Part shown: positions 3,146 through 64,000 of the stretch, one piece after another
Layout of the letters: every line of letters starts with the position of its first letter
Position numbering within the stretch: position 1 is the first letter of the stretch
Assembly: GCA_963805045.1 (NCBI GenBank)
Contig: CAWDTC010000025.1
Coordinates: forward strand, 42,372 to 106,371
Direction of reading: 5' to 3'
Length of the DNA: 64,000 nucleotides
Origin: Candidatus Aminicenantes bacterium
Lineage (GTDB): Bacteria; Acidobacteriota; Aminicenantia; Aminicenantales; Saccharicenantaceae
Notes under the pieces: generated by a model
What the model saw: the letters and a program-made list of their open reading frames with translations, nothing else
Told to the model about the DNA's origin: nothing
Databases searched by the model: none
Made by a program: the position numbers and the translations under genes

Positions 3146-6100
3146 GGGTGTTCCTCGCGCGAGCGACGACGACGTACCCCTGAGGGGGATCGCCGTAAGA
3201 CGGGATGATCCGCTCGATCTCCCAACCCGCTCCCTCCAGCAAGCCTTCGAGCTTCTCAGAATCGAAGAAGTCGAACGTCCCCGCCTCCTCTAGATCCACT
3301 AACGCCTGGGCGTCGTTGAGGAAGGAGCGGAGAGATTCGAGGAGAAGCGGCTTGGGCCAACTCGGCGGGAGGGCCTCCTCGGGCATGGTTTCTATCTTCT
3401 CGAGGAGCCGGGTGAATGGGCCGGAGGCGTCGGTATCGGGACGCATGCTCGACAAAACGAGCCTTCCTCCCGGCCTGATGATCCTCCTGACCTCGGCCAG
3501 GGTTTCGCCCGGATTGAAAATATAGGAGAGAACGAGGCTCATCAGGACCTTGTTGTACCAGCCCGCCCGGAGCGGGAGATGAAGGGTGCCCTCCAAGTAC
3601 CCGGGTAAGGCGAGTCTGCGGAGGGCGGGCTTCTTATTCGTCAGGCGCCGGACGTAGCGCGCGGCCAGGTTAAAATCGATGATCGTCCGGTACTCGTGGA
3701 GATCGAACTGCCTTTTCAACCATTCGTCGTACGCTGGGGAAATGGGCTCCCCCCTGAGGATTCTGTGGAGACGAGGCGAATAAGCTTTTTGGATCTTCAG
3801 GGCACTCTCTAGGGTCAGGTTCTCGATCTTGTCGGCCATCTCCTCGAAGGTCCCGACCTCGCCATCCAGAAATCGCTGGATAGGGAGGAAGCGGCTCAAC
3901 TCCATGTCGAGGCACAGGAGGTCGAGGCGGCCGGGCTCCTTGAGGGCGTCGTAACGGAAAACGAACTTCTGCCTGGCCTGCTCCATGGCATCCGGGATCA
4001 GATCGGCGACGGTGATCTGTGCGGGAAGCTCCCGGCCGCTCTCGAGGAGGTGTTCGACGAAATTGCCCGTCCCGCCGCCCAGATCGAGCAGCCGGTCCGA
4101 GGGCAGGAGCTCGAGGGCCAGGAGTTGGTCCTGCATCAGCTGCTGGTAATCGTCGGACATCGCCATGATGTCGAAGCCCAGGAGGTTGTTGTCGCCCACG
4201 AGATAGCGATGCCAGTAGGTCTGTCGGTTCTTGAGGTTCCGGGTCGGAAGCCTGTCTTTCTCGGCCCGGCGCATGGTCTCCATGTTCTTCCGGCTGGGCA
4301 GGACCGGCTGGATCATGGTCTTGTGAAGAAAACGATGGATCAGCGACGTGATCGTCCCGAACATCTGCAGGGCCTCCCTTGACGTCCGGGCATTGTGCCC
4401 GATGGGAACGGAGATCACCTCACGCGGGGCGTTGGCCTTGATGCTCATCACGTCGCGGATGAACTCGGCCCTGACCCAGTTGTCGTATTGTCCGTAGATC
4501 CAGGTTATCGGAATGTCGATATGGCGCATGTCCTCGCGGGCCTGCTCGAGCGTGGCCACGGAGTTCGCGACCCCGTCTCCGACATAGAAGTCGACATTGA
4601 CGAGGTTGCCCAGGACCGGCATGACGCCCAGTTTGATGCCGAGCTGGTAATGCTCCAGGAAATCCAAGCCGCAATTGATCCGGACCATGAGGTCGCGGAA
4701 TTCCGGCGTGCCCATGCAGGCGATCCAGTACTGGATGCGATGATGGTTCGCCTCGTCCCTGAGGACGATCCGAGCGTCCAGCGCCGAAAAAGAAAACGTC
4801 AGGAGGATGACCGAGCTGGCCCGGAGTTTGGGATTCAGGTCAAGCCAGTCCAGGATGGCGACGACGTCCGCGGCGCTCTGGGTGAAATTCGTATTGAGCA
4901 TCTCATATGGCGGCTCCGATGCCTCGGCGTCCTTGTGGCTTTCCCCCTTCTTGCGGATGCCGTCAAAACGGATGACCGCCAAGGGCTTTCCCAGACGGCG
5001 GAAGTTCTCGGTCAGGGTCAGGGCCAGCCCGAACAGAGTCTCCTTGGTCTTCCCGAAGGCCGGCGGGACGATGACAACCGGGACGGGCCTGTCGTCCAAG
5101 GGGAGCGATGAATTCAGAAGCCCGACGATCTCCTCACCCTGCCGGGTCTCGACCCGGAACACCTCCGGGGGCTTGAGAACCGGTTGGCCCGCTTCTGTCG
5201 CGGCAGGTCGGGTCGCCTGTCTCCCGGACGGTTCGTCGGGATGGAGCCCGTAATCAAGCTCGGGAGTCTGGACGGACTGAATGCTCATCCGGCCGATGCC
5301 GAATTGAACACCGTACTTCGCGGTGTAAAGGACTCCTTCTCCGGCCCGGGAAACGTAGCGGACTTCGCCACTCTCTTTCCAGAGGACCTGGTCGCCGTCC
5401 ATAATGGACACGGTGTCGAGGGGCGTCCCCTTCAGCAGGACCTGTGCGTGGGAGTCGGCGATGAAGCTGACCCCACCCGGACTGATGTCGGTGATGCGGC
5501 CGGTGATGCTGTTGTTGAAGGGCTCGGGGAGGGGGATCTCGACCCGGAGGTTGCCGTACGGACTGAGCCGCTTTTCGGTCCGCTTTTCCGAATAGAACAT
5601 GACCCGTGGGTAAAGGCAGGTCAGGTTCCGGCCATCCGGCGCGATTCGAGAGATCATCGTCTCGAAATTGTAAGTGGCGTAGCCGATCTGGAAGGAGACA
5701 AAGATGAGATCGGACGTCTTGAACCGGACGTTCAGGTCTTCCCCGGCGAAGACGCACGTCGACTGAGGCCGGACATCGCCGAACCTGAGGATCTCCGGGT
5801 TCCGGGATTGGGCCTGGACGACTGCGACCTCCGTCCCATTGCGCATGGCCTCGCGGATGAGGGACTCGATCTTGAAGGCGTCCGAGAACAGGACCATGTC
5901 CTCGGTCTTGAGGAACGGATACCGCGATTTGAGCCCGGAAAGGTCGCGGACCGTGACGTAATCCGAGAGGAAGTGAAGGAGAGAGCGGCGGCTCTCGTCA
6001 TCGATGGCCTTGAACTCGACGCCGACGCCTCCCTGGTCGACGTCGTGCCGGACAATCCGGCCCGTGACGGCATAATGGCGGCCATCGGGGAGGGTGATGT

Positions 6101-10307: not shown

Positions 10308-11438
10308 GCGGGCCTCCTTGTCCTTCCGGACGGGCTCTCCGGGCCATCATACAATGAAAGGAAATGCCGTTGCAACCCAAAAACGATCCCGGGCGCAACG
10401 GAGCGCGACGGGGAAGCCCTCAACCTCAGTATCCCGTCCCCGTCCGTCCGGACCTTGCCCTTGAAGACCCGGTAGGCATAGATCGTGTACCAGACGACGA
10501 GCGGCATGCCGACCAGGGCGATGACGAGCATGACCTTGAGGGTCAGGGCGCTCGACGAGGCGTTGGTGATGGTCAGGCTCAGCGCCGGGTCCGTGGCCCG
10601 GACGAGATGGGGATAATGGACCGCACCGACGGTCCCCCATAGGCTCAGGAAGAAGGTCGAGGAAAAGAGGAAGGCCCGGCCGTCCTTCCCCTTCTTCAGC
10701 GCGGCCAGGATGAGGCCGAGCGAGGCCCAACCCAGCACGGCGAAGATCCAGGCCGGGACCCTCTTTACGGCGCCGGGGAGATAGGCCCAGACGGCGAGGT
10801 ACGAAACGAAGAAGGCGCCCATGGCCACGGCGACAAGGGCCTTGGCCGCCTTGCGGGTCCTCTCCTGGAGCTCGCCTTCCGTCTTGAGCGCGGCCCATGT
10901 CGCGCCGTGGAGGAGGAAGGCGGCCAGGCCGAGGAGCCCGAAGACGAGGGGCAGCGGCCGGAGCAGGGTGAAGAAGCTCGCCCGCGTACTCCATGCGCGC
11001 ATCGAGGGGCACGCCGCCGACGACGTTGCCGAGGGCGACGCCGAAGAGGAGCGCCGGCAGGAAGCTCGCGCCGACGAAGACCGCCTCCCAGAATTTCCTC
11101 CGCGGCGTGTCGTGGGCCCGGAACTCGAGCGAGACGGCCCGGAGGATGAGGGAGAAGAGGACGAGCATCAGGGCCAGGTAGAAGCCGCTGAAGACCGTGG
11201 CGTAGGCGTGCGGGAAGGCCGCGAAGAGGGCCCCGCCGCCGGTCAGGAGCCAGACCTCGTTCCCGTCCCAGACGGGGCCGATCGACCGGACGAGCGCCGT
11301 CTTCTCGCCCTCGTTCCTGGCCAGGAACGGCAGGAGGACGCCGACGCCGAGGTCGAAGCCGTCGAGGACCGAGTACCCGGCGAGGAGGACGCCGACGAGG
11401 ACGAACCAGATGTTGCGGAGAAGGTCCCAGGCGCCCAT
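10304..11438 (-). CDS. cydB: Cytochrome bd ubiquinol oxidase subunit II (frameshifted)
   Basis: N-terminus MGAWDLLRNIWFVLVGVLLAGYSVLDGFDLGVG (RBS AAGGAGG) in ORF 10347-12071; C-terminal part ...WYTIYAYRVFKGKV in ORF 10304-11002. One frame break lies at about 10900-11000. Confidence 0.75.
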
Positions 11439-12822
11439 CACAGCCCTCCTTGCGGTGAACCATGGGGGACAGTCCCCCCGGGAGGGGACTGTCCCTCTCT
11501 TTCTTCCGGGGGAGCGTCCGGACCCTGCCGGACCAGCCGGAGGATGACGGAGACGCCGGCCGCCGCGATGAGCGCGTAGACCGCGGCGAAGAGGACGAGC
11601 GAGAACAGGATCTGCCCCGCGGGCACGACGACGGAGACGGCGTCCGCCGTCCTGAGGACGCGGAAGACCGCCCAGGGCTGGCGGCCGACCTCGGCCGCGA
11701 ACCAGCCGAACTCGTTGGCGAGGTAGGGGAGAGGCACGGCCAGGACGAGGAGCCGGAGGTACCAGCGCGGGACGGCCTTCCCCTTCCGGGCGAGGAAGGC
11801 CGCGCCCGGGACGGCCATCACGATGAACAGCAGGCCGAGGAGGATCATCAGGTGGTATCCGGCGAAGGGCAGGAGGACGGGCGGCCGCTCGTTCTTGGGG
11901 AACTCCGAGAGCCCCCGGACCTCGGTGCCCGTGTCGAAACCGACGAGGAAGCTGAGAAGGCCTGGGATGCGGAACGGCGAGACGCGTCGTCTCGGCCTTC
12001 TCGTCGGGGATGCCGAAGACCGTGAACGGCGCCCCGGTCCGGGTCCGCCACAGGGCCTCGAAGGCGGCCATCTTCTCCGGCTGGGTCCGCGCGACCTGGA
12101 CCGAGTGGGCGTGGCCCGAGCCGAGCTGGAGGACCGACGCCGGCGACGAACACGGCCAGGGCCGTTCTCAGGAGGAGCCCGGCCTTGTTCCCGCGCCCTG
12201 TCCTTGAGGAGGAGCCAGGCGGCGATGGCCGCCGCGACGAGCGAGCCCGTGATCCAGCCGCCGAGGACGGTGTGGACGAAGCGGACGACGGTCGACGGGT
12301 TGAGGGCGGCCCGGCCGAAGTCCGTCAGGCAGGGCCCGGCCCGCCTCCATCCGGAAGCCCGCCGGCGTCTGCATCCAGGAGTTGGCGATGATGATCCAGA
12401 CCCCGGAGAGGTGGGAGGCGAAGAAGACGAGGAAGGCCGAGACCCAGTACATCTTCGGCGAGACGCGGCGCCGCCCGAAGACGAGGATGCCCAGGAAGAC
12501 GGATTCGAGGAAGAAGGAGAAGACGCCTTCGGCCGCGAGCGGCGCGCCGAAGATGTCGCCGACCGTCCGCGCATAGGCCGACCAGTTGTTGCCGAAGGCG
12601 AACTCGAGGGCGATCCCGGTGGCGACGCCCATGACGAAGACGACGCCCAGGATCCTGACGAGGAAGCTCGAGACGTCCCGGGCCAGTTCGTCCTTCTTCC
12701 GGAGAGAGCGGGATTCCAGGATGAGGATGACGAGCGTCAGGCCGAAGGTCGTCGGCGGGAAAGAGGAAGTGGAAACCGGCGGTCAGGCCGAACTGTAGCC
12801 GGGCCAGAAAGACCGGGTCCAT
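11438..12822 (-). CDS. cydA: Cytochrome bd ubiquinol oxidase subunit I (multiple frame breaks)
   Basis: N-terminus MDPVFLARLQFGLTAGFHFLFP (RBS AAGGAGG, ATG at 12822). Q-loop region GIALEFAFGNNWSAYARTVGDIFGAPLAAEG is in ORF 12168-12632. C-terminus is in ORF 11438-12574. The stop TGA overlaps the cydB ATG (ATGA). Confidence 0.75.
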
Positions 12823-12963
12823 GGGGCCCTCCTTCGCGCCGGCGGCCGGGATCAAGGGGGCCAGCCCCCGGGGGACCGACCTCTCCTGATTCCCCTTCCG
12901 GACGGCGAGGGAAATATAGACGAGGCCGCGCTCCGAATCAAGAGGGACGGTCCCCGCCCCGCG

Positions 12964-12991
12964 TTGCCCGACCCGACCGCTATGATAAAAT
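12964..12991 (+). promoter_or_regulatory. Candidate sigma70 promoter TTGCCC-16-TAAAAT for the CDF transporter gene
   Basis: Located in the divergent cydA/CDF intergenic region, about 30 nt upstream of the ATG at 13020. Confidence 0.3.
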
Positions 12992-13019
12992 AACAAACCT
13001 ACCGAGGTCGAAACCCCTC

Positions 13020-14450
13020 ATGCCCGAACGCCCGCCGCTCGAGGACGGCCTGTCCGTCAAGGAAAAGACGTCCGCCGCGGCGAACTCCGTCTTCGCCGCC
13101 CTCGCCCTGACCGGCATGAAGCCGCGGTCGGCCTCCTCTCCGGCTCTCTCGGCCTCCTGGCCGAAGCGGCCCACTCCGGCCTGGACCTCGTCGCCGCCGT
13201 CATCACCCTCCTCGCCGTCCGGGTCTCGGACCGCCCGGCCGACGAGGACCATCCCTACGGCCACGGCAAGGTCGAGAACTTCTCCGCCCTCGTCGAGACG
13301 CTCCTTCTCTTCGTCACGTGCGGCTGGATCCTCTACGAGGCCGTCCGCCGGCTCTTCTTCCGCGCCGTCGCGGTCACGCCCAGCGTGTGGGCCTTCCTCG
13401 TCGTCGTCGCGTCCATCGTCGTGAACATCTCGCGCTCCCGGATGCTCGGACCGCGCGGCGCGCCGGCACCGGAGCCAGGCCCTGGAGGCGGACGCCCTCC
13501 ACTTCTCGACCGACGTCTGGAGCTCGGCCGTCGTCCTCGCCGGGCTGGGCCTCGTCTGGCTCGGCCAGCACGCCCTGCCCGGCTATGGGCGCGTCCTCGA
13601 GAAGGCCGACGCCGCGGCCGCCATCGGCGTCGCCCTGATCATCCTCCTCGTCAGCTTCAAGCTGGGCAAGCGGACGGTCGACGTCCTCCTCGACTCGGCC
13701 CCGGACGGCCTTGCGGAGAGGATCGCCGAGGCGACGGCCGGGGTCGAGGGCGTCCTGCGGGCTGGCCAGGTCAGGGTCCGGCGCTCGGGCGCCCGGGTCT
13801 TCGTCGACATGAACGTCGAGGTCGACCGGAACCTCAGCTTCGAGCGGACCCATGCCATCGCCGACGCGGTCGAGGCCCGCGTCCGGTCCGTCACGCCCGG
13901 CGCCGACGTCGTCGTCCACACCGACCCGCGGGAGAGCGAGCGCGAGTCGATTGCCCGCCGCGTCCGGGCCGTGGCCGACCGCAACCTCGTCCCCGTCCAC
14001 AACATCAGCGTCCGCGAGGACGGGGGAGCCCTCTGTGTCGACCTCCACCTCGAAGTGGACGACCATCTCCTCCTCCACCAGGCCCACGAGCTGGCCAGCC
14101 GCATCGAGCAGGACCTCAAGGCCGACATCCCGGCCATCAAGAGCGTCAACACGCACATCGAGTCCCGGGGCACGGGTGTCGGCAGCGGCGTCGACGTGAC
14201 GGCCCAGGAGCCGGAGGTCGTCGCGACGGTCCGGCGGGTTGCCGACGCCGTCGTCGGCCGGCCCTGCTGTCACGACGTCATGGTCAGGCGGCAGGGCGGC
14301 CGGCTTTCCGTCTCGCTCCACTGCAGTTTCGACGCGGACCTGCCGGTCATCGAGGCCCACCGGATCTCGTCGCGGATCGAGGAGGCCCTGAAGGAGGAGG
14401 TCCCGGCCGTCGATTCCGTCCTGGTCCACACGGAGCCCGAGGGCCGTTGA
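13020..14450 (+). CDS. Cation diffusion facilitator (CDF) family metal efflux transporter with tandem C-terminal cytoplasmic domains (frameshifted)
   Basis: TM region (SAAANSVFAALALTG...HSGLDLVAAVITLLAV...DEDHPYGHGKVE) is recoverable across three frames in 13020-13800. ORF 13809-14450 encodes two cation-efflux C-terminal-domain repeats. Confidence 0.7.
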
Positions 14451-15221: not shown

Positions 15222-16913
15222 TCACCGCGCCGCTTCGCTGTCTTCCCAATCGCGGATCGTCCGTATGGCCTCCTCCGGGGTCCGGACCGACCTCAGGACC
15301 TGCATGAGTTGCCTGTTCTGGGCGGCCCGGCTGGCCAGGCCCAGCAGCTGGACCTGGGTCCCGGGGGTCTCGGCCGGGGACAGGAGGAGAAAGACGATCT
15401 CGATGGGCTTGTCCGTGGCCACGTCGATGACGCCCTCCTTCGTCAGCCCGAGGACGACGACCGGTTCCTTCAGTCCCTCCACCCGGACGTGGGGGAAGGC
15501 GACGCCCTCGTTGAAGAACGTCGAGCCCTGCGCCTCCCGCGCCATGATGGCCGCGAACAGGGCTTCGGCGTCCCCGCCGCCGGCCTCCGGTCCGACGGTC
15601 GCGGCCAGGGCGCACAGCACGCCTTCCCTCTCTGCGGCCGTCTCCCAGATGACGACCCGTGGGGAGGACAGCCACCGGCTGAGCCGGGGACGGTCCGCCG
15701 GCGCGGCGCCGGCGCCTCCGGCCGCAGCGACCCCCGCCGTTTCCTGCTCGGGGATCTCGGGCCGGGGCCGGACGGACTCCGGCAGGTCCTCGCACGTGTC
15801 GAGGACGATGACGGTGATCCCCCGGGCGTTCCTGATGAGAGCGTCGATGACGTTCCTGTTCCGGCCGAGCCGCTTCCAGAACGGCTTGGGCTGGGCCCGG
15901 CCGACGACGATGTGGCCGACCCGGTATTCCCGGGCGAAACGGAGGAGCGTGTCGGCGATGTCCTCCCCCTTGTAGGTGAAGACCATCGCCCCGAGCTGCT
16001 TGGCCAGGGTCAGGGAGTCCGAGAGATGGCGCTGGACTTCGGCGTCGATGACCGTGGCTTCCTCCGACGGCGTCTGGACATAGACGGCGTACCAGTTCCG
16101 GTTGAGCCTCCCCGCCAGCCGCGAGCCGTAGCGCAGGAGCTTCTCGCTGTTCGGGCCGTGCGAGCTCAGGCAGACCATGACCTGGTCGGACGAAGCGCCG
16201 GCCTCCGCCCCCTGCGCCTCCCGCCGCCGCAGGTCGATCTGCGAGGCCAGCTCCCGCAGGGTCAGCTCGCGGAGCTTCTCCAGGTTGGAGGGGGTGAAGA
16301 AATTGGCCAGGGCGGTCTCGATGCGTTCGGTCGGGTAGATCTTGCCGTCCTCCAGGCGCTGCCGCAGGTCCTCCGTGGCCAGGTCGACGTCGACGATCTC
16401 GTCGGCCTCGGCCAGGATCGAGTCGGGGATGCGCTCGCGGACCTTGACCCCGACGGCGTTCTCGACGATGTTGTAGAGGCTCTCGAGATGCTGGACGTTG
16501 AGCGTGGTGATGACGTGGATGCCGGCCGCCAGGATGTCCTGGACGTCCTCGTAGCGCTTGGCGTTCCGGCTGCCGGGGACGTTCGTGTGGGCCAGCTCGT
16601 CGATGAGGGCGACCTGGGGCTTGCGGGCCAGGATGGCGTCCACGTCCATCTCCTCGACGGCGATGCCGTGGTATTCCTGGGTGCGCCGCGGCACGACCTC
16701 GAGGCCCTGGGCGAGCCGGGCGATGTCCGCCCGGCCGTGCGTCTCGAGGAGGCCGATGACGACGTCGATGCCCTCGGCCTTGAGCCGGTGGCCCTCCTGG
16801 AGCATCTGGTAGGTCTTGCCGACGCCCGCGGAATAGCCGAGGTAGACCTTGAGCCGGCCCCGCTGGGCGCTGCGGATCATGCGGAGGAAGGCGTCGGCCT
16901 TATCGTCCGGCAC
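15222..16913 (-). CDS. Kinase-less KdpD sensor module: KdpD N-terminal domain + Usp domain fused to a PTS EIIA(Ntr)-like (EIIA type 2) domain
   Basis: KdpD-N signature LKVYLGYSAGVGKTYQML...ALIDELAHTN. A Usp-OKCHK-like region follows (VMVCLSSHGPNSEKLL...IVVG), then a Gly/Ala linker and an EIIA-2 fold with an active-site-like His (GVAFPHVR...IVFLLLSP). No HisKA/HATPase is present. Confidence 0.8.
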   Translation of the reverse strand: MPDDKADAFLRMIRSAQRGRLKVYLGYSAGVGKTYQMLQEGHRLKAEGIDVVIGLLETHGRADIARLAQGLEVVPRRTQEYHGIAVEEMDVDAILARKPQVALIDELAHTNVPGSRNAKRYEDVQDILAAGIHVITTLNVQHLESLYNIVENAVGVKVRERIPDSILAEADEIVDVDLATEDLRQRLEDGKIYPTERIETALANFFTPSNLEKLRELTLRELASQIDLRRREAQGAEAGASSDQVMVCLSSHGPNSEKLLRYGSRLAGRLNRNWYAVYVQTPSEEATVIDAEVQRHLSDSLTLAKQLGAMVFTYKGEDIADTLLRFAREYRVGHIVVGRAQPKPFWKRLGRNRNVIDALIRNARGITVIVLDTCEDLPESVRPRPEIPEQETAGVAAAGGAGAAPADRPRLSRWLSSPRVVIWETAAEREGVLCALAATVGPEAGGGDAEALFAAIMAREAQGSTFFNEGVAFPHVRVEGLKEPVVVLGLTKEGVIDVATDKPIEIVFLLLSPAETPGTQVQLLGLASRAAQNRQLMQVLRSVRTPEEAIRTIRDWEDSEAAR

Positions 16914-17493
16914 GGGGGACTCCGTCGAGCGCGAGGTTCAATTCAGGACGTTGACGCGGGGCTCGCCGAGGATGCCCAACGTCCGGCCCTCGGTCGTGGC
17001 CGCGACGAAGGCGAGGACATCCGACTCGGTCAGGCCGCGGGCCCGGGCGACGCGGCCGGCCTGGAGCCGGGCGTTCTCGGGGGAGATGTGGGGGTCGAGC
17101 CCGCTCCCCGAGGCGGTCACGGCGTCGGCCGGCACGGGCGTCCCCGGCGCGAGGCCGTTCTCCGCCCGGTATTCGGCGACCCGGCGCCGCACGGTCTCGA
17201 TCAGCTCCTTCGACAGCGGCCCGAGGTTTGACCCGCCGGAGGCCGTGGCGTCGTAGCCCTTCCCGGCCGCCGACGGACGCGGATGGAAATACCCCGGCCC
17301 GGCGAACCGCTGGCCGATGAGGTCCGAGCCGACGACGGCGCCGCTCCTCGCGACGAGCGAGCCGTTGGCCTCTGGCCGGGAAGAAGGCCTGAGCCAGGAC
17401 CCACGAGGCCAGCGGATAGAGGCCGCACAGAAGGACGGCCAGGGCGGCCACGGCCAGGAAGGACCGCCGGAGTTCCTCGAGCCAGCTCTTCAT
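16900..17493 (-). CDS. kdpC: K+-transporting ATPase subunit C (frameshifted)
   Basis: N-terminus [32 protein letters not shown] (ATG at 17493); C-terminus ...[13 protein letters not shown]...EPRVNVL/ELNLALD is split between ORFs 16938-17192 and 16900-17493. Confidence 0.75.
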
Positions 17494-17514
17494 CTCCGCG
17501 TTCCTTTCCCCATG

Positions 17515-19541
<2,027 letters not shown>

Positions 19542-19553
19542 CGTGCGACTCCC

Positions 19554-21408
19554 TTAGAACAGGACTCCCGAACCGGTCATCAGGAAGTGCTCGACGATCG
19601 GGCCGAGGGCCAGGGCGGGAAGGAACGTCAGGGCGCCGACGATGAGGACGGTCCCGACGAGGATGATGACGAACATCGGCCCGCTCACCGGGAAGCTCGC
19701 CTCGCCCGCCGGGACGAGCTTCTTCCGCGCCAGGCTCCCGGCCAGGGCCAGGACCGGCACGATCATGACGAAACGGCCGAAGAGCATGGCCAGGGCCAGG
19801 GTGACGTTGTACCAGGCGTGTTGCCGTTCAGCCCGGCGAAGGCGCTGCCGTTGTTGCCCGTGGCCGAGGAGAAGGCGTAGAGGATCTCGCTCAGGCCGTG
19901 GGGGCCGGCGTTGCCGAGGCCGGCCAGGCCCCAGCGGCTCGACCGACGGCCCAGGCGGCGAAGCCGAGGATGGAGAAGATGAGGATGAGGACGGCCAGGA
20001 CGGAGACCTTGACGTCGTAGGCCTCGATCTTCTTGCCGAGGTACTCGGGCGTCCGCCCGACCATCAGGCCGGTCAGGAAGACGGCCAGGACGACGAAGAC
20101 GAGCATCCCGTAGAGGCCCGAGCCGACGCCGCCGAAGACGACCTCGCCGAGCTGGATGTTGACGAGCGGGACGAGCCCGCCGAGCGGCGTGAACGAGTCG
20201 TGCATGGCGTTGACCGCGCCGCAGGAGGCGTCCGTCGTGACGGTGGCGAAGAGGGCGGAGTCGAAGACGCCGAAGCGGACCTCCTTGCCCTCCATGTTGC
20301 CGCCGCGCGGGTCGACGCCGAGGGCCTGCGAGCCGGGGATTGCCGGCGCTCTCGGCCCTCCAGCAGACGAGGACCGCGGCCAGGAAGAGGATGGCCATGG
20401 CCGTCCAGACGGCCCAGCCGTGCTTCTGGTTCTTGACCTTGCGGCCGAGGTAATAGGTGAGGCCGCTCGGGATGAGGAAGATCGAGAGCATCTGGATGAA
20501 GTTCGAGAGCGGCGTCGGGTTCTCGTAGGGATGGGCGGCGTTGGCGTTGAAGAAGCCGCCGCCGTTCGTGCCGAGCATCTTGATGGCCACCTGCGAGGCC
20601 GCCGGGCCCTGGGGGAGGGTCTGGGTCGTCCGGCCGCGTCCTTCCCGGGACCGGCCGTCGCCTCCGCGGTCGCCGCCCGGACGTAAGGCTTGAAGTTCTG
20701 GATGACGCCCTGGGACGATCAGGAAGAGCGGAGAAGACGAGCGAGAGCGGGAGCAGGAGGTAGAGGTTGACGCGGACGAGGTCGACCCAGAAGTTCCCGA
20801 TGGTCTTGGCCGAATGCCGGGCGATGCCCGCGGACCAGGGCCGCGGCGACGGCGATGCCGGCGGCGGCCGAGACGAAGTTGTGGAAGACGAGCCCGACCA
20901 TCTGCGAGAAATAGGACAGGGTCGATTCCCCGGCATAGTTCTGCCAGTTCGTGTTCGTGGTGAAGCTCGCCGCCGTGTTGAAGGCGAGGTCGGGGCGCGA
21001 CGCGGCCCGAACTCTGGGGGTTCAGGGGCAGGAGGTGCTGGAGGCGGAGGACGGCGTAGGTGAAGAGGAGCCCGACCAGGCTGAAGACGAGGAGGGAGAG
21101 GGTGTATTGCTGCCAGTCCTGCTCCTTCTTCCGGGTCGACGCCGAGGAGCCGGTAGAGGAGGCGCTCGACGGGCTTGAGCCGGCCGGTCCAGCCAGGTCC
21201 TGCCCTCGGGCTCGAGGACGCGGACGAGGTAGAGGCCGACCGGCTTCGTGAGGAGGAAGAGGACGCCGAGGAAGAGCGCGAGCTGGAGTCCAGCCGGAAG
21301 ATGTCCATCGCGATCATCGCCTCTCAAAACTTCTCCGGCCGGAGGACGCTCGAGCAAGAGATAGCCGATGAGCAGGAGCCCGACGATGAGCCCGATGATG
21401 TCGATCAT
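19554..21408 (-). CDS. kdpA: K+-transporting ATPase subunit A (several frame breaks)
   Basis: N-terminus [19 protein letters not shown] (ATG at 21408). Internal segments are in ORFs 20073-21317, 19891-20295 and 19763-20590; C-terminus in 19554-19787. Confidence 0.85.
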
Positions 21409-21410
21409 GG

Positions 21411-21495
21411 TCAGAGCCTCTCGCAGGCCCGGGCATACAGGGCGCAGAGCCCGAAGAAGACGCACGGCGATGAGCACGAAGAAGACGTCGCTCAT
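21411..21495 (-). CDS. kdpF: KdpF-like small membrane peptide (about 28 aa, one frame break)
   Basis: [12 protein letters not shown] then ATG at 21495. Peptide MSDVFFVLIAV...FFGLCALYARACERL read with a 1-nt shift. Its TGA lies immediately before the kdpA ATG. Its ATG overlaps the upstream HK stop (ATGA). Confidence 0.5.
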
Positions 21496-23349
21496 GACGC
21501 GGCTCCTCCTCGGCGCACCGCGTCGGCCCTCCTCAGCGTGAAGGAGAACGTCGCGCCCTGTCCCTCCCGGCTCTCGACGCCGACCGTTGCCGCCGTGGGC
21601 CTCGACGATCTCCTTGACGATGGCCAGCCCGAGCCCCGCGCCCCGGTCTCCGGCTCCTGCCCGGGAACGCGGAAGAACGGCTCGAAGATCCTGGCGAGGT
21701 ACTTCGCGGGGATGCCGGCGCCCGTATCGGCGACCGAGAAGCGGACCGACGTCCTCCTCTTCCTTGGCGCGACACGGTGATCCGCCCGCCGGGCGGCGTG
21801 TGCTTGAGGGCGTTCGAGAGCAGGTTGCCGAAGACGTGGCTGATCGGGTCGGTCGGCCAGGACCTCGGGCAGGTCTGCCGCGCACGTCGACGGCCAGCGT
21901 CACGCCCTGGTCCTGGGCCGCCCGGCGGAAGGGCTCGAGGGCGTCCATGACCAGCGTCTGCGGGCGAGATCGGCCTGGAAGTCCATGCTGGCCTTCCCCG
22001 ATTCCATGCGGCTGATGTCGAGGAGGTTGTTGAGGATGTCGTGGAGCCGGTCGCTGTCCTCCCGGGCCGCGACCAGGAGCTCGGCCTGCTTCTCGGTCAG
22101 GGCGCCGACCTTCTCCTCGAGAAGGAGGTGGATGGCCATGCGGATGGAGGTCAGGGGGGTCTTCAGCTGGTGGGAAACGGTCCGGATGACACTCCGCTTG
22201 ATCTCGTCCTGCTGCCGGAGCTGGGTGACGTCCTGGAGGACGAGGATGACGCCGGTCGGCTGCCGCTCGGCGTCCAGGATGGGGACGGCCTCCGGGCGGA
22301 AGAAGCGCTCCTCCCCGTCCACGAATGCTGGATGACCTTCTGCCGTTCGCGGGGCGGAACGGGCCGGCCCTCGCTGAGGGCCTCGTTGTAGAGATCGACG
22401 TCCAGTCCGAACGGCAGGTCGCGGATGGCGGACGCCCGGCCTCAGGCCGAAGACGGTCCTGGCCGGCTCCGTCGACGACCTCCACCTTTCCCTCGAGGTC
22501 GACGACGGCGACGGCGTCGGGCAGCTGTCGAAGGCCTGCTGTGTCGCCCGCTGGATGCGGAGGAGCTTGGCCTGGTCGGTCCGCCGGAACTCCCGCAGGC
22601 TGGCGGCCATGGCGTTGAACGCCTCGGCCAGGTGGCCGATCTCGTCGTGGGAATCGCTCGGGACGACGAGGTCGAGGTTGCCGCGCCGGATCTCGTCGGC
22701 GGACCGGATCAGGCGTTCGGATCGGGCCGGAGGATCCAGCGTCCGGGCGAAGACGATGAAGCGAGCGGCGACGAGCGTCCCCAGGCCGAGAAGGACGATA
22801 CATCTGCCGCCGGGCCGCGGCGGCGCTCTGCGCGGGCCCGGTCGTTGGCGTCGCTCATGTTCTGCTGGTTCATCTGGAGGATGTCGTCGGCCGTGGCCTT
22901 GATCTGCCCGAAGAGCGGGAGAAGGGCATGTGAAGTAGGCGTCCCGGCGGACGTCCGGCGGCCTGCGCCGGGTCGCTTGACCTTCTCCAGGGCCGCTGCG
23001 TACCGGCCGTAAAGATCCTTGAGCGCGCGGCCTTCTCGCCCTCGCCCGGCACGGTGATGTTGTTCAGCTCGACCTGGAGGGCCTTTTCGAAGACGCCTTC
23101 GTTCTTCAGGATGAGCTCCTCCCCCTGACGGGAGTCGCCGAGGAGGGTAAAGAGCAGGCCGCTGTCGATGCGCTCCAGGGCCTCCTTCATCTGCTGGCAG
23201 GCGATGACGCTCCGGTAGTTCTCGCGGAGGATGACGTCGATGGACTCGCCGAGCCGCGAGAGGTGGAGGATGCTCTGGCCGCCGATGACGAGGATGATGA
23301 CGAGCAGCCCGCCGAAGCCCAGGGAGATCTTCTGACGGAGTCCGAGCAT
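21492..23349 (-). CDS. Membrane sensor histidine kinase (non-KdpD type; periplasmic sensor domain, HisKA, HATPase), frameshifted
   Basis: RBS GGAAGGAGAGG then ATG at 23349: MLGLRQKISLGFGGLLVIILVIGG... (ORF 22870-23349). HisKA VSHQLKTPLTSIRMAIHLL (ORF 21900-22610). HATPase ...GLGLAIVKEIVEAHGG in a third frame; stop at 21492. Confidence 0.75.
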
Positions 23350-23373: not shown

Positions 23374-23389
23374 TGCAAGAGCCATGCCA
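23374..23389 (-). promoter_or_regulatory. Sigma-54 (-24/-12) promoter CTGGCATGGCTCTTGCAT immediately upstream of the HK-kdpFABC operon
   Basis: Minus strand reads TGGCAT-N5-TTGCA. The GG-to-GC spacing is exactly as in the consensus TGGCAC-N5-TTGCA. The predicted start site falls at the RBS, about 14 nt before the ATG. Confidence 0.55.
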
Positions 23390-23481
23390 GAGTTGCGTGT
23401 CTTCATAAACTATTGAAAATGAATGTGTTGCATTTCGCCTGGCAAAGCGCGGCTTGCATTCGTCAAGGTGGACGGCGAATT

Positions 23482-23503
23482 GGCCATTGAAAAATGCAAT
23501 GCG
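23482..23503. promoter_or_regulatory. Candidate enhancer/UAS inverted repeat GGCCATTGAAAAATGCAATGCG, about 105 nt upstream of the sigma-54 -24 element
   Basis: Arms GCATTG/CAATGC. A near-identical motif (17/22) occurs at the same distance from a second sigma-54-like promoter at 27521-27542. Further TTGCAT repeats lie at 23427 and 23454. Confidence 0.4.
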
Positions 23504-23544: not shown

Positions 23545-24914
23545 CTAAAGGCCGTACTTCTTACGCCGCCGCCAGAGGGTGGCCTGGTCGATGCCGAGCA
23601 CGTCCGCCGCCTCCTGGAGGGAGTCGCGTCCTCGCCAGGACGCGCCGGATGTGCTGCTCCTCGATCTTGTCCAGGCTCACGCGGTCGCCGAGCCGGACCT
23701 CGGCGCCGCCGGGAACGACTCCCGCCGGCAGGCATTCGATGCCGACGCGGTCGTCGCGGCAGAGGATGGCGGCGCGCTCGACAGCGTTGCTCAGTTCGCG
23801 GACATTGCCCGGCCAGGCGTAGCCGGCCAGGGCGCGAAGGGCCTCGTCCGTGAAGCCCAGGTACGAGCGGTGGTTATTGCGGGCGTGAAAGGCCAGCAGC
23901 CGTTCCGCGAGCCCGGCAATGTCGCCCGGCCGCTCGCGGAGGGGAGGGATCTCGATCGGGATGACGTTCAGACGGTAATAAAGGTCCTCCCGGAAGCGGC
24001 CGTGCTTGACGGCGTCCTCGAGGCTCGTGTTCGTGGCCGCGATCAGCCGCACGTCCGCCTTCCGCGTGACCGTGTCGCCGACGCGCTCGTATTCCCGGTC
24101 CTGGACGAAGCGCAGGAGCTTCGGCTGGAGGGCGAGGGGCAGGTCGCCGATCTCGTCCAGGAAGAGCGTCCCGCCGTCGCTCGCGGCGATCCGGCCGGGG
24201 TTGTCGCGGACGGCGCCGGTGAAGGCGCCCTTGACGTGGCCGAAGAGCTCGCTTTCGAGCAGCTCCGGCGAGAAAGAGGGGCAGGAGATCAGGCTGAACG
24301 GCTTCCCCGCCCGGGGGCTCCAGGAATGGATGGCCCGCGCCAGGACCGTTTTGCCCGTGCCGCTCTCGCCGCGAAGGAGGAGCGTCGCCTCGGATGCCGC
24401 GGCCTGGCGGGCCAGGGCCGCCGCCCTCTGCATGGCCGGGTTCGAACTCGAAAAATCGACCTCCGGACGCTGGCGGCCCAGGTCCTCCTGTAGGGCGGCG
24501 ACCTTCTGCTCGAGCGTCCGGACCTCGAAGACCTTCCGGACGGCCAGGTTGATCTGGGCCGGCGTGAACGGCTTGGGGATGTAATCGGTCGCTCCCCGCC
24601 GCATGGCCTCGACGGCCGTATCGATGGAGGCGTAGGCGGTGATGACGATGATCTTGAGCCAGGGCGTCGCCGCGAGGAGGGGCGGGATGAGGTCGAGGCC
24701 GTCGTCGGTGCCCAGCCGGAGGTCGACGAAGGCCAGGTCGAAGGAACGGCGTGCGGCCTCGGCCAGGGCGTCCTGGAAATTGCTGACCGCCGATGACCTT
24801 GTGGCCTTCCGTCTCGAGACAGAGGGCCAGCGTCTTGCGGATGTTGAGCTCGTCGTCCACGACCAGGACATGGAGGGACGGGCTCACGGCCGGGATGCTC
24901 TTTTCGGGCCCCAT
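23545..24914 (-). CDS. Sigma-54-dependent (NtrC-family) response regulator: REC - AAA+ sigma54-activation domain (GAFTGA) - Fis-type HTH; frame breaks near both ends
   Basis: N-terminus MGPEKSIPAVSPSLHVLVVDDE (ATG at 24914). AAA+ with GESGTGKT and GAFTGA. C-terminal HTH ...EAADVLGIDQATLWRRRKKYGL* read in a shifted frame (stop at 23545). Confidence 0.8.
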
Positions 24915-25105: not shown

Positions 25106-25879
25106 ATGACACTCAAGAAGAAACTGACTTTGGGCCTGGGGTTCTTGTTCCTCATCATATTCTTTTTGGGGATTTTCTGCTCCTACCATATCGGCAGCCT
25201 CTCGCAGGACGCCGAGAACATCCTGAAAGACAATTACAAATCACTCGTCTACTCCAGGAACATGATCTCGGCCCTCGAGGACATGCGGACGGCCGTCAGC
25301 AGCATTATTTTCAACGTGCCCGAAGCTAAGGAGACATCAGACTACTACCTGAAGCTCTTTGAAGCCGGCCGGATCGAATTCGAAGCCAATCTCAAGTCCG
25401 AGAACGGCAACATCACCGAGATCCATGAAAGCGATTACGTGGCCGCGGTCAACCGGGATTATGTTCTGTACGCAAGCCTCTGCCAGCGCCTCGTCAAGGG
25501 GGAGGGCGGCCGCGCGCTCTATTTCAATGAATACCAACCCGCCTTTGAAAAACTCAGGCACGCCATCATCAGCATCAACGACGTTAACATGCAGGCCGTC
25601 GAGCGGAAAAATCAGATCGCAAAGCAGGATTCGGCCAGGACCATCAGCCTTATGGCCGGCATCGGGGCCTTTTGCCTGCTCCTGGCGTTCGGCTATTTTT
25701 GGTACTTCCCGGTTTACATCTCCAACTCGATCAGCTATCTTGCGGACAGGATGAAGACGCTCCTGAAGAAGTCCAACATCGTCCTCGATATCAGGACGGA
25801 CGACGAAGCCTTCATCGTCTTGCAGGGCATCAACCTGCTTGAGAACAAGCTGGACGTCAAAGACAATGGACAGGCCTAG
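25106..25879 (+). CDS. Orphan membrane-anchored sensor-domain protein (two TM segments, no output domain); paralog of the HK sensor domain
   Basis: MTLKKKLTLGLGFLFLIIFFLGIF...ENILKDNYKSLVYSRNMISALEDM aligns with the HK N-terminus ...DVILRENYRSVIACQQMKEALERI. A second TM is near the C-terminus. RBS GGAGG. The gene is visibly lower in GC than its flanks. Confidence 0.6.
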   Translation: MTLKKKLTLGLGFLFLIIFFLGIFCSYHIGSLSQDAENILKDNYKSLVYSRNMISALEDMRTAVSSIIFNVPEAKETSDYYLKLFEAGRIEFEANLKSENGNITEIHESDYVAAVNRDYVLYASLCQRLVKGEGGRALYFNEYQPAFEKLRHAIISINDVNMQAVERKNQIAKQDSARTISLMAGIGAFCLLLAFGYFWYFPVYISNSISYLADRMKTLLKKSNIVLDIRTDDEAFIVLQGINLLENKLDVKDNGQA

Positions 25880-25896
25880 AGGCCTGCGGATGGATT

Positions 25897-27201
25897 CTAA
25901 AAGGTGAAGAGGGCGTCCACGCTGAATGTCAACTGATCTTGATGGCCGCCGTCGAAGGCCGCGCGGTCAGAGTGGTCGTAGCGAACTTCAGGCCGGAACA
26001 GCACATGCGAGAGGATATGGTCTTTTGGGAACGGCTTGATCGCCATGCCCATGGTTGCCTCACGGTAGTCGGCGCTGACGGGCGCACCGGTGGAAAAGCC
26101 ATTGGCGGCGTCTTTGTACCACTCCAGCCGGGTGTTCAGTGTGAAGTGCGTATCGATCGCGAAGCTTACGTAGCCAGCCACGCCACCCCACTGCTTAACA
26201 CCGTCCGGTAAGCCCGGGATGTGCGGCGCGACGACGTAGTCAACGCCCAAGCCGAGGCTGAATTTGTCAGTGACCTTGTGGGTCATAACCAAGTCCAAGG
26301 CGGTCCACCAGTCGCTGTTGTCGCCCGGAGGCAGATTCGTTCCGACGCCCGCCGGGAACTCCGGGCCTTCCGTCATCACGAAAATGACGGAAGTCTTGTC
26401 GCTGGGCGTATAGATCACGCGGCCCAAGAAGTCCAGGGAATCGTTAGCGTCGCGCGTCGACTGGTTCCAGCCGCGCGTGAAGCCGGCGTCAAACGTCCAC
26501 TGGCGGTTAAGCACGACGGTGGCTAATACGCCCGTCTGCGTGCCAGACTCGGCATAGAGAAACTGATAACTGTAAGAATAAAGTGCCCTGGCCGGATCAC
26601 CGAAAGCCCCGTAGATGTTAGCGCTGAACTGCTCGAAACCGGCCAGCTCGATCCATTTGCCCACGCGGAGTCGAAGCGGCAAGCCCGGGAGGGTCACGTC
26701 CACATAAGCTTGGAGAAGGTCCCATTGATTGCGCCCGGTCTGCGTATCCATCATGCCGTTCGAGTGGATGAACGCCGCATCTGCGCCATAGATGCCTTCC
26801 CCGTGGAAACCCACGTTAAATGCCTTCTTGGTCGGATCGACCGTGCGCTCGATATTCAAACTGATCTTGTCAAGGATGACCGTGTTCTTGAAATTGTTAT
26901 ATCCGATGTAGGTCGGGCCGGGACTGTCAGGCGCGGAGAGGTCGTAAAAGTAACCGCCTTGAGCATAGCCGTAGATGTTGATCCTGGCCTTGTTCAAAGG
27001 CCCAGCTATTCCCCCCTCGGCCAAAGCCGTCATCAGCGGCCCCGGTGTCGGCACGGTCGTGGTCGGCGGACTTGCTTCCTGGATCTTTTCCTTGTCCGAT
27101 GTCGCTGCCGGTGCATTTTGGCCGGCGCGCAATGGGATATTGATCCAAGCGGCAAGGAGCGCACAGCTGACTGCGGCAATCCCGAATTTAACGACTTTCA
27201 T
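25897..27201 (-). CDS. Outer-membrane beta-barrel protein (porin-like), with a signal peptide
   Basis: RBS AAGGTGA then ATG at 27201: MKVVKFGIAAVSCALLAAWINIPLRAG. Alternating amphipathic strands; C-terminal ...SVDALFTF (terminal Phe). Confidence 0.6.
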   Translation of the reverse strand: MKVVKFGIAAVSCALLAAWINIPLRAGQNAPAATSDKEKIQEASPPTTTVPTPGPLMTALAEGGIAGPLNKARINIYGYAQGGYFYDLSAPDSPGPTYIGYNNFKNTVILDKISLNIERTVDPTKKAFNVGFHGEGIYGADAAFIHSNGMMDTQTGRNQWDLLQAYVDVTLPGLPLRLRVGKWIELAGFEQFSANIYGAFGDPARALYSYSYQFLYAESGTQTGVLATVVLNRQWTFDAGFTRGWNQSTRDANDSLDFLGRVIYTPSDKTSVIFVMTEGPEFPAGVGTNLPPGDNSDWWTALDLVMTHKVTDKFSLGLGVDYVVAPHIPGLPDGVKQWGGVAGYVSFAIDTHFTLNTRLEWYKDAANGFSTGAPVSADYREATMGMAIKPFPKDHILSHVLFRPEVRYDHSDRAAFDGGHQDQLTFSVDALFTF

Positions 27202-27413
27202 GGGTGTCACCTTGGTTAAAGGATGTGCGATCTCTTCCGGATTCGGTTGCGACGGTCGAGCGACTATCATCAATCCGCTGCACGATTTGCGAGAACTGAC
27301 GGTCGAGGATATGCACGACTGTATTTCCTATGGGACGGCTGGCTTTCTGGATGTTTGTTTTTGATTTCATGGATTTAAGGGGGCTTGGCGTTTTTTTCCG
27401 AGAGACCGGATAG

Positions 27414-27431
27414 TGCAAGATATATACCAAC
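27414..27431 (-). promoter_or_regulatory. Sigma-54-like promoter GTTGGTATATATCTTGCA (TGGTAT-N5-TTGCA) about 210 nt upstream of the OMP gene
   Basis: Exact GG-N10-GC spacing; a TGGTAT -24 variant is known from nif promoters; shares an upstream motif with the kdp sigma-54 promoter. Confidence 0.35.
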
Positions 27432-27520
27432 AGATCTTTACTGTATCTGATTAAAAATAAATGAGTTTTTCGAAGTTCGAGTTCCGGGCCTGGTTGCACT
27501 AATCAATTAAGGTCGCGAAT

Positions 27521-27542
27521 GGGCATTGAGAAATGCAACGGC
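27521..27542. promoter_or_regulatory. Second copy of the candidate UAS motif GGGCATTGAGAAATGCAACGGC, about 104 nt upstream of the -24 element
   Basis: 17/22 identity with 23482-23503, and the same distance to its promoter. Confidence 0.35.
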
Positions 27543-27594
27543 GGCGGCCTTCATCGCCGCCACGAGCTTACTTATTAAGCTTGTTTCGTTCGAA

Positions 27595-59555: not shown

Positions 59556-60679
59556 ATGATGGAAAACGTCTTACCCCGAAAACCTCCGTCCGTGGCCCCA
59601 CCCAGTTCCTCGGCCTTCCGTCGCCCGGCTTGGAAAACGCCGACGCGCTCCTGCTGCCGCTGCCGGTCGAGAAAACCGTGTGCTATGGCCGCGGCACGGC
59701 CGGCGGGCCGCGGGCGATCATCGCGGCCAGCCCCCAGATCGAGACCTTCGACGAAGAGACGCTGGTGGAGTTCGCCCAGTCGCCGCGACTCCATACCCTG
59801 CCGCCGCTGCCGGCCGAGGGCGAGATCGAGGACTGCCTGGCGGCGATCGAGGATTACGTCCGGTCGTTGCCGGAGAAGTTCCTGCTGGCCCTCGGCGGGG
59901 AGCATACCGTGACCTACGGCGTGGTCGCCGGGCTGGTCGCGCCCACAAAGCCGCGACCGGCGGTCGCGCCCAGCTGGCAGCAACTGCCGCGCCAACCGGT
60001 TCAACTGCCACCCCAACGCGACGATCTGGCCGGCGTGACGGTGGTGCAGATCGACGCCCACGCCGATCTGGCGGACCGGTTGCACGGCCGGCGTTGGTCG
60101 CACGGCACGGTGATGCGGCGGCTCTGGGAGCGGGGCTGCCGGCTCCTTCAGATCGGCGTCCGCAGCCTCAGCCGGGAGGAATATCGAACTGGCCTCCGCC
60201 GGGCCGCGGATCACCACCTACTACGCCCATCGCCTGGAGGAGCAGTGGGCCGAAATCCTGGAGACGCTCCGCGGCCTGGAAGGGAAAGTCTACCTGACGC
60301 ATCGACGTGGACGGTCTGGATCCGTCGATCATTCCCAGCACGGGCACGCCGCTGCCCGGCGGGCTCGGCGTGGCGGCAGATGATGGAGATCATCCGCGTG
60401 CTCTGCACGGAGTCCCGCGGCCGGCTGATCGGGGCCGACATTGTCGAGTTCGTCCCCTCGCCGGTCCCGCCCGGCTGCGATCCGACGGTCGCCCGGCTGG
60501 CGACGAAGCTGCTGGCGTGGTGGTGGAAGGGGCACGGTGCCGTCGCCGGCCGCTCTCTGTCGCAGGGAGAGTGGCTTACGCTGGTACGAAGATTGCGCTT
60601 CGGACAGCCTCTTCGAGCGTTGGGCGGCGTTGACCGCATCCGAGGACGGCCTTGCACGGGGAAGATTAGCCGATACTGA
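59556..60679 (+). CDS. Agmatinase/arginase-family ureohydrolase (several frame breaks)
   Basis: ALGGEHTVTYGVV, VVQIDAHADL and IDVDGLDPSIIPSTGTPLPGGL motifs spread across ORFs 59630-60679 and 59680-60297; the 3' end is uncertain. Confidence 0.7.
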
Positions 60680-61362: not shown

Positions 61363-61879
61363 GCCGCCGAGCACGCCCGATAGCGGCCAGAGGGGAGACG
61401 CAGGATTGTCGCTACGGGCATAGAGATGTCCAAGCCGCGCGGGGGCAGGAGAGGAGGCGGTTTTGTCGGTACGGCGAATCGTGTTGTTGGTTTGCTTGCT
61501 GGTTGCAGCGGATATCGGTCTGCTCGTGCCGGTCTGCCTACTGGCTCGGGTGGAGGCTCCCGCTGGCAGAGGCGTTGCTCTCGGCAGTGGCCGGCCGTGC
61601 TGGTGATCGGCTACTATGAGTGGCGATGGTCAACCCTGGTCGCACGACTATCTCACAGCGGAGGTGCCGGGGGTGCACGGCGAATCGTTGTGTCGAGAAG
61701 ATCCTGCCTGCTAGTCGCCGGCGCATCTCCTGATTTTGCCGGGTTTTTTGAGCACCGCGGTTGGTCTTGTCCTGCTACTGCCGTGGGTCCGCCGCCTGAT
61801 CGCGAAGCCAGCGGCACAACCGGGTGTGAAAGGAAAAGACGGGGGGGCCGAAACGGGCGACCCGGCCGCGTGACGGCTT

Positions 61880-62852: not shown

Positions 62853-64000
<1,148 letters not shown>

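Follow-up and report, generated by a model that had tools for sequence, protein, structure and literature searches.

A predicted sigma-54 promoter with a paired-site enhancer appears to place a BBP2 porin gene under shared control with a kdp operon in Candidatus Aminicenantes

The passage of K+ through the outer membrane is generally taken to be passive, via general porins, and Kdp regulons are described as pump genes alone. A 64-kb stretch of DNA from an uncultured Candidatus Aminicenantes bacterium of peat, which we analysed as a whole and call the window, raises the question of whether a porin can belong to such a regulon. On its minus strand, the region at 27414-27542 lies upstream of an outer-membrane protein gene and resembles the region upstream of an operon for a sensor histidine kinase (HK) and the Kdp pump (HK-kdp). 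The first-pass annotation of this DNA had pointed to a sigma-54-like promoter and a shared upstream motif, and had proposed a common activator whose regulon may include the porin. We put the probability at roughly 80% that 27414-27542 is an enhancer-dependent sigma-54 promoter of the porin gene, with an operator that is shared with the HK-kdp operon and bound by the NtrC-family regulator encoded at 24914-23545.

Read along the minus strand, the end of a PhzF-like gene is followed by a hairpin, enhancer site 1, a 19-nt spacer, enhancer site 2, an AT-rich block, the promoter, the leader, a Shine-Dalgarno (SD) sequence and the porin ATG:

28407-27595, minus strand: PhzF-like gene (Pfam match to PhzC-PhzF, 1.2e-63), with its TAA stop at 27597-27595
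27541-27563, minus strand: terminator-like hairpin (GTGGCGGCG...CGCCGCC) from the terminator scan, after the PhzF-like gene and abutting enhancer site 1
27526-27538, minus strand: site 1 of the porin enhancer (upstream activating sequence, UAS), TTGCATTTCTCAA, centred at about -129 from the predicted start and kept in the porin promoters of all relatives
27494-27506, minus strand: site 2 of the porin enhancer, TTGATTAGTGCAA, an inverted copy of site 1 at 32 bp centre to centre, centred at about -97
27443-27470, minus strand: AT-rich block (AAAAACTCATTTATTTTTAATCAGATAC) between enhancer and promoter, a candidate bending site or site of the integration host factor (IHF) type
27414-27429, minus strand: sigma-54-type -24/-12 promoter of the porin, TGGTATATATCTTGCA, with GG and GC in sigma-54 register, kept in relatives
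27202-27403, minus strand: predicted porin 5' leader of about 202 nt, from a start near 27403 to the ATG at 27201
25897-27201, minus strand: porin gene, 434 aa, BBP2/OmpL-like, with signal peptide, Pro/Thr-rich linker and beta-barrel
25870-25887, minus strand: terminator-like hairpin from the terminator scan, directly after the porin stop codon

The sigma-54-like promoter that had been noticed upstream of the outer-membrane protein gene was borne out. Read from 27429 to 27414 it is TGGTAT-N5-TTGCA, begins 109 nt after the start of site 1, and has GG at -24 and GC at -12 in the register of TGGCAC-N5-TTGCW, as does the promoter of the HK-kdp operon. A promoter scan found no sigma-70-like promoter for the porin on its strand within 27202-27574. 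Given the hairpin 3' of the stop codon, the porin unit looks monocistronic. The elements on the kdp side are:

23454-23499, minus strand: HK-kdp enhancer, site 1 TTGCATTTTTCAA at 23499-23487 and site 2 TTGACGAATGCAA at 23466-23454, 33 bp centre to centre
23374-23389, minus strand: sigma-54-type -24/-12 promoter, TGGCATGGCTCTTGCA (TGGCAT-N5-TTGCA), serving the sensor kinase-kdpFABC operon

The shared motif had been described as a 22-mer, GGGCATTGAGAAATGCAACGGC, which occurs at 27521-27542 as a single copy in the window. Its counterpart on the kdp side, GGCCATTGAAAAATGCAATGCG at 23482-23503, is identical at 17 of 22 positions, and the distance from the centre of the 22-mer to the GG is 104 nt at the porin and 105 nt at kdp, both in agreement with the first-pass annotation. 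The preceding genes end 52 nt (PhzF-like gene) and 41 nt (activator gene, helix-turn-helix frame, TAG at 23547-23545) before the motif, close to the 40-50 nt given earlier; the listed open reading frame that ends at 27575 belongs to another frame. The 22-mer itself is present as described. It spans the first 13-mer with its flanking bases and makes up half of the full element. Both enhancers are a 45-bp palindrome, TTGCAWTTNTCAA-N19/20-TTGANAAWTGCAA, made of two inverted 13-mers, each holding a TTG-N7-CAA dyad with its arms one helical turn apart, an arrangement that would suit a dimer of Fis-type helix-turn-helix domains. On the kdp side the sites are separated by 20 nt, their centres lie at about -130 and -97, and the TGG of the promoter comes 110 nt after the start of site 1. 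The promoter that had been called the kdp promoter directly precedes the sensor kinase gene, with kdpFABC following.

Two smaller motifs were rejected. A GCATT-N4-AATGC palindrome inside the 22-mer was dropped, as its AATGC arm is not kept in relatives, which conserve TTGCAWTTNTCAA instead; a third AATGCAA half-site (GAAATGCAAC) at 23427-23436 on the minus strand is not kept in other HK-kdp promoters. At 23403-23418 on the minus strand, within the HK-kdp promoter region, TTTTCAATAGTTTATG fits the IHF consensus WATCAANNNNTTR with one mismatch, and TTTCAATA..TTA blocks like that of this promoter also occur in loci L020, L071 and L007 of the set described below.

In the search for the composite element each 13-mer could deviate at two positions at most, and the spacer could be 16-23 nt long. 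In the window it is found solely at the porin and HK-kdp promoters. It did not occur once in 200 dinucleotide-preserving shuffles, nor in 100 x 64 kb of synthetic sequence with the composition of the two intergenic regions. A loose sigma-54 pattern gave 6 matches in the window against 1.27 expected, and the matches beside the two enhancers are the only ones of the six in AT-rich intergenic DNA. TGG-N8-TTGCW also occurs at 59979-59994 (minus), 60069-60084 (plus), 61564-61579 (plus) and 63534-63549 (minus), in GC-rich sequence with no enhancer-like element near; these four are probably chance matches inside coding regions.

The same arrangement recurs in relatives. A genome scan with the porin alignment gave 68 loci, which were chosen by porin homology and not by the motif. 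In the 1.14 Mb made up of these loci and the window, the composite element is confined to 13 promoters. Eight stand before the porin gene (window, L005, L006, L007, L008, L013, L020 and L025), four before HK-kdp (window, L007, L013 and L025) and one before kdpFABC (L071). At all 13, TGG-N9-TGC follows 107-110 nt after the start of site 1, and in every close relative examined the enhancer, promoter and spacing stand before porin and/or kdp genes. In six genomes that share the gene order of the window, conservation runs from site 1 across the promoter and into the transcript for ~25 nt; in the AT-rich block, TTTATT.TTAATCAG.TA is invariant in six close relatives. In more distant promoters only the two sites, the AT-rich block and the -24/-12 elements persist. 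The hairpin after the PhzF-like gene is missing in L013 and L025, where the enhancer comes after the activator gene, and therefore it is not part of the enhancer.

Furthermore, an exact, gene-blind metagenome scan for TTGCAWWNNTCAA-N18-20-TTGANNWWTGCAA returned at least 80 loci. Among the matches listed, 52 are flanked, on one side and not the other, by TGG-N9-TGC at a distance of 58-70 nt from the palindrome. Where the genes downstream of these could be named, they are a sensor kinase followed by kdpFABC-kdpD' (most loci), kdpFABC directly (7) or the porin; in one of the kdpFABC cases, L138, the unit runs on into the porin, and L134 is the sole apparent chance match. The other 28 of the matches listed comprise 9 at HK/kdp genes and about 16 unrelated ones, mostly on AT-rich contigs, and include one porin-type site (L120) at which the contig breaks off. 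No amt or gln gene stands at the palindrome among the matches listed. In the pooled set of 61 non-identical promoters, 48 have a 19-nt spacer between the sites and 59 place the TGG 105-110 nt from the start of site 1; their -24/-12 consensus is TGGCAY-N5-TTGCW, and the AT-rich block is partly conserved. The two enhancers of the window are repeated dyads in the range of about 80-150 bp upstream of their promoters, at a fixed distance from them and kept together with their targets.

Which protein might act on these sites is suggested by the gene that lies between the two promoters. This gene and the operon behind the second promoter are laid out as follows:

23545-24914, minus strand: gene for an NtrC-family response regulator/sigma-54 activator with receiver domain, AAA+ domain with GAFTGA and Fis-type helix-turn-helix, between both promoters
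15222-23349, minus strand: HK-kdp operon of sensor kinase, kdpF, kdpA, kdpB, kdpC and a KdpD-like/EIIA fusion
23349 to about 21490, minus strand: sensor kinase with four-helix-bundle (4HB), HAMP, PAS, HisKA and HATPase domains
21408-21324, minus strand: kdpF
17500-17016, minus strand: kdpC
16913-15222, minus strand: KdpD-like non-kinase K+ sensor fused to a PtsN-like EIIA, intact

The domains of the activator are a receiver, an AAA+ module that contains GAFTGA and, at the C-terminus, a Fis-type helix-turn-helix, with Pfam matches to Response_reg (9.8e-17), Sigma54_activat (1.2e-64) and AAA_lid_14 (1.2e-19). Walker A (GESGTGKT) is encoded at 24370-24347 and GAFTGA at 24229-24212, and the C-terminus reads LWRRRKKYGL before the stop; HTH_8 gives a weak match only, on the L004 orthologue. 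Matches to NCBIfam models (AtoC, NtrC and others) all fall under the equivalog cut-offs, and the protein is therefore none of these named regulators. The last gene of the kdp operon joins a KdpD part without its kinase region (PF02702, 1.6e-92) to an EIIA domain of the phosphotransferase system (PF00359, 3.9e-16), and the same fusion is found in L013 at 11346-13040 and in L071 at 1840-3543. A 257-aa open reading frame at 25106-25879 on the plus strand, convergent to the porin and divergent from the activator gene, has a weak 4HB_MCP_1 match (1e-4); it is present in L001 and L005 and not in L004 and L007, where the activator gene directly follows the porin. A second, unrelated histidine kinase/response regulator pair lies at 1280-2500 on the minus strand (weak tblastn matches, 28-33% identity).

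The gene behind the first promoter encodes a BBP2 porin. The protein matches Pfam BBP2 (PF07642) at 2.5e-48 and 165.5 bits against a cut-off of 26.2, and carries a signal peptide. Its AlphaFold2 model, of moderate confidence (pLDDT 72.6, pTM 0.71), is a porin-type barrel whose best Foldseek matches in the PDB are DcaP, Omp38, OmpT and OmpF (E 5e-12 to 1e-9). By sequence, the porin matches no solved structure and no NCBIfam model. The barrel is net acidic, with 39 D+E vs 27 K+R, and the 87 residues that are invariant across 75 homologues include 18 acidic and 9 basic ones; this is compatible with cation preference and proves nothing.

Homologues of this porin number in the hundreds at 66-86% identity, the nearest named ones in metagenome-assembled genomes (MAGs) of Candidatus Aminicenantales. 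Roughly 30 of the 68 loci picked by porin homology also carry a kdpA or kdpB homologue no more than 10 kb from the porin gene; the MAGs concerned belong to Aminicenantes, Verrucomicrobiota, Omnitrophota, Thermodesulfobacteriota, Binatia and Acidobacteriota. The layouts differ. With [P] for the composite promoter and EBP for the enhancer-binding protein, L013 and L025 read EBP-[P]porin-[P]HK-kdpFABC-kdpD', and L020 has [P]porin-HK-kdp with a single promoter. L071 and L138 have [P]kdpFABC-porin, with the porin inside the kdp unit behind one such promoter, and the window has [P]porin, the small convergent 4HB gene, the activator gene and [P]HK-kdp. The porin thus carries the same operator as the kdp operon and keeps a genomic association with it. 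Together, the conserved enhancer, promoter and spacing, the gene-blind scan, the porin inside kdp units and the NtrC-type gene between the two promoters support the earlier proposal of a shared activator with the porin in its regulon.

In about 25 of the 68 loci the porin stands beside genes for an ammonium transporter, often along with those for a type III glutamine synthetase and an NAD synthetase. The amt-linked loci are L011, L017, L024, L029, L030, L033, L038, L047, L049, L052, L054-L057, L065, L066 and L069, and loci with both kdp and amt are L026-L028, L034-L036 and L068; the gene order in Verrucomicrobia loci is kdpA-kdpB-...-amt-porin. The amt and kdp neighbourhoods point to a K+/NH4+ role for the porin family. 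Locus L130 (851-1321, minus strand) shares with the window its PhzF context, enhancer, TGGTATATATCTTGC promoter and start of the leader, yet the promoter there leads into another BBP2 porin, which is divergent (Pfam 1.2e-14) and gave no tblastn match with the window-type porin.

How could such a promoter work? We hypothesize that the membrane kinase, probably in concert with the KdpD-like sensor/EIIA protein, detects a shortage of K+ and would then phosphorylate the NtrC-family regulator. The regulator would oligomerise on the paired 13-bp sites, three helical turns apart, and bending at the AT-rich block could loop it to sigma-54 RNA polymerase at -24/-12. ATP hydrolysis would remodel the closed complex and open the promoter. 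The Kdp pump in the inner membrane and the BBP2 porin in the outer membrane would in this way be co-induced, and the porin would most likely be the outer-membrane route for K+, perhaps also for NH4+.

Paired sites of this kind are familiar from the NtrC enhancer of E. coli glnAp2, in which two dimer sites about three turns apart, ~100-140 bp upstream of -24/-12, nucleate an AAA+ oligomer that reaches sigma-54 polymerase via DNA looping. The paired-site geometry is the same here, whereas the recognition sequence, the signal and the regulon differ, and the AT-rich block hints that a protein helps to bend the DNA, as happens where sigma-54 promoters depend on IHF. E. coli KdpE, in contrast, is an OmpR-family regulator at a sigma-70 promoter, and we know of no porin that it controls. 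Common to both systems are the two-component induction of a high-affinity K+ pump, predicted here, and a KdpD-type sensor domain (PF02702); here the regulator would be a sigma-54 activator, and the KdpD N-terminal domain sits on a non-kinase protein. In E. coli, PtsN (EIIA-Ntr) stimulates KdpD, the two being separate proteins that reportedly interact. An EIIA-Ntr-type domain may be tied to K+ sensing here too, with the difference that the two parts are predicted to be fused in one polypeptide.

The closest precedent is DVU3334, the sigma-54-dependent response regulator of kdpFABC in Desulfovibrio vulgaris Hildenborough (Rajeev et al. 2011, Genome Biol 12:R99, PMC3333781). It binds CGTTACATTTTGTAACG at -149 from its own kdp operon, as seen by DAP-chip and electrophoretic mobility shift assay (PMC3333781), and this site matches CGTTGCATTTCTCAATG here at 12 of 17 positions. 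In both cases an NtrC-family regulator is encoded with kdpFABC, and the role of KdpD is shared out between a sensor protein and a distinct kinase. The Desulfovibrio site is one 17-bp palindrome, unlike the two inverted 13-mers 32-33 bp apart seen here, and no porin target was reported there (PMC3333781); furthermore, the kinase here has 4HB/HAMP/PAS inputs and the KdpD-like sensor is fused to EIIA. The likeness of the activator in the window to DVU3334 appears to be one of family, gene context and site. Variant sites of the form TTGCA-N3-TGCAA (e.g. TTGCAAAATGCAA) occur at L046 (9891-9934) and L048 (9640-9665 and 11160-11200), loci whose activators are only 62-66% identical to that of the window. 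These sites are nearer to the DVU3334 palindrome, an intermediate form that suggests that operator and activator co-evolved.

Several points weigh against the reading of 27414-27542 as a working promoter of a Kdp regulon. Position 8 of site 2 is G in the window vs A in five aligned close relatives, and with a -24 element of TGGTAT and not TGGCAC the porin promoter may be weaker. One or more frameshifts each break the genes for the activator (two), HK, kdpF, kdpA, kdpB and kdpC, with the porin and the KdpD-EIIA fusion intact; if real, they would mean a decaying system in this genome. Conservation at the pattern-fixed positions of the metagenome set is circular, the loci having been picked by the pattern, so that these positions are conserved by construction; what counts as independent support is the spacing, together with the promoter, the genes present and the loci found by porin homology. 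Finally, K+ is proposed as the porin substrate from gene linkage and the net-acidic barrel.

Some of these points would also be expected if the porin enhancer and promoter were a relic of a rearranged EBP-[P]porin-[P]HK-kdp or kdpFABC-porin unit that no longer regulates the porin here. The variation of gene order between lineages, the unique A-to-G change in site 2, the TGGTAT box, the ~110-nt unique insertion in the leader and the frameshifts would fit such a history. However, the porin gene is intact and its SD is conserved, and the sites, AT-rich block and -24/-12 elements are kept in the six same-order genomes while the leader diverges freely. The frameshifts are spread over many genes and resemble long-read homopolymer errors, since L004 and L007, from a similar assembly, are fragmented alike; orthologous operons in L013, L025 and many metagenome loci are clean. 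We therefore regard a relic as unlikely.

Could the porin promoter be served instead by another sigma-54 activator with a similar site, for example an NtrC-type regulator of nitrogen metabolism, so that the porin responds mainly to ammonium? The porin loci with amt, glutamine synthetase and NAD synthetase genes would be in line with this, as would the BBP2 porin KSMBR1_3177 of Kuenenia stuttgartiensis, which is strongly induced under NH4+ limitation and for which a greater cation influx was suggested (PMC7438415). That porin shares Pfam family PF07642 with ours, a likeness at family level, and differs in organism and cation, with no regulator or promoter described (PMC7438415). The porin element, however, is the same in sequence, spacer and promoter distance as the HK-kdp element, which stands beside the activator gene, and none of the gene-blind matches listed stands at an amt or a gln gene. 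Classical NtrC sites, TGCACC-N5-GGTGCA, also differ from the element here. We consider a separate activator quite improbable.

The leader had been singled out as unusually long (~210 nt), and a riboswitch, attenuator or small upstream open reading frame in it might be the main regulator, with the upstream motif incidental. The length is real, at 202 nt, and an ATG open reading frame of 60 codons starts at 27369. This frame was rejected as it has no SD and is missing in relatives; the porin ATG, in contrast, is preceded by the SD AAGGTGA. Rfam gave nothing on the leader at gathering thresholds or at E<=5, and the fold z-score is +1.57, a minimum free energy weaker than that of shuffles and no significant structure. 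From TGG to ATG the window has 228 nt vs 73-125 nt in relatives, the leaders of the six genomes with its gene order diverge with many indels past the first ~25 nt, and ~110 nt are unique to this genome. A repeat or mobile element was ruled out as the source of the extra ~110 nt, with no other copy in the window or in 150 loci. Neither a kept sequence or structure nor a known RNA family was thus found; the long leader is real, yet not evidence of regulatory RNA, and control by the leader is very unlikely. Taken singly, 13-mers that match within 2 mismatches turn up often in DNA of the intergenic composition (mean 22 per 64 kb), but a chance likeness of the two AT-rich upstream regions is refuted, because the paired inverted arrangement appears in no shuffle and recurs at a fixed distance to -24/-12 at orthologous genes in dozens of genomes.

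We return to the shared, sigma-54-type control of porin and pump as the preferred reading. Control of kdp by sigma-54 and an NtrC-type regulator is already known from D. vulgaris, and the mechanism is textbook. The novelty lies in the operator and in the porin as a probable member of the regulon, both from an uncultured lineage, an incremental and not a conceptual advance; in the literature, we found no porin in a Kdp or Amt regulon or operon beyond the Kuenenia transcriptome remark and a note on SAR11 OmpU.

At 63-86% identity, this porin recurs in MAGs assigned to Aminicenantes, Verrucomicrobiota, Omnitrophota, Thermodesulfobacteriota, Binatia, Phycisphaerales and Acidobacteriota (L005-L072), nearly all of them from peat, fen or wetland samples. 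Such cross-phylum identity is unusually high for an outer-membrane protein and suggests horizontal transfer. The porin contigs L018, L053 and L060 are binned into Methanothrix, Methanoperedens and Enterobacteriaceae MAGs, labels that are almost certainly binning errors in the public records.

These findings suggest that widespread uncultured wetland bacteria, Aminicenantes and others, couple a porin to the K+ pump via one sigma-54 activator. The operator TTGCAWTTNTCAA-N19-TTGANAAWTGCAA is usable for annotating Kdp regulons in metagenomes, and the porin is a concrete candidate for a cation-specific outer-membrane channel. More tentatively, and at somewhat less than even odds, the BBP2 porin could be a dedicated K+/NH4+ outer-membrane channel that is co-induced with Kdp or Amt and whose gene has spread horizontally across at least 6 phyla at 63-86% identity. 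If so, outer-membrane K+ permeability would be a regulated, limiting step in ion-poor peat and wetland habitats.

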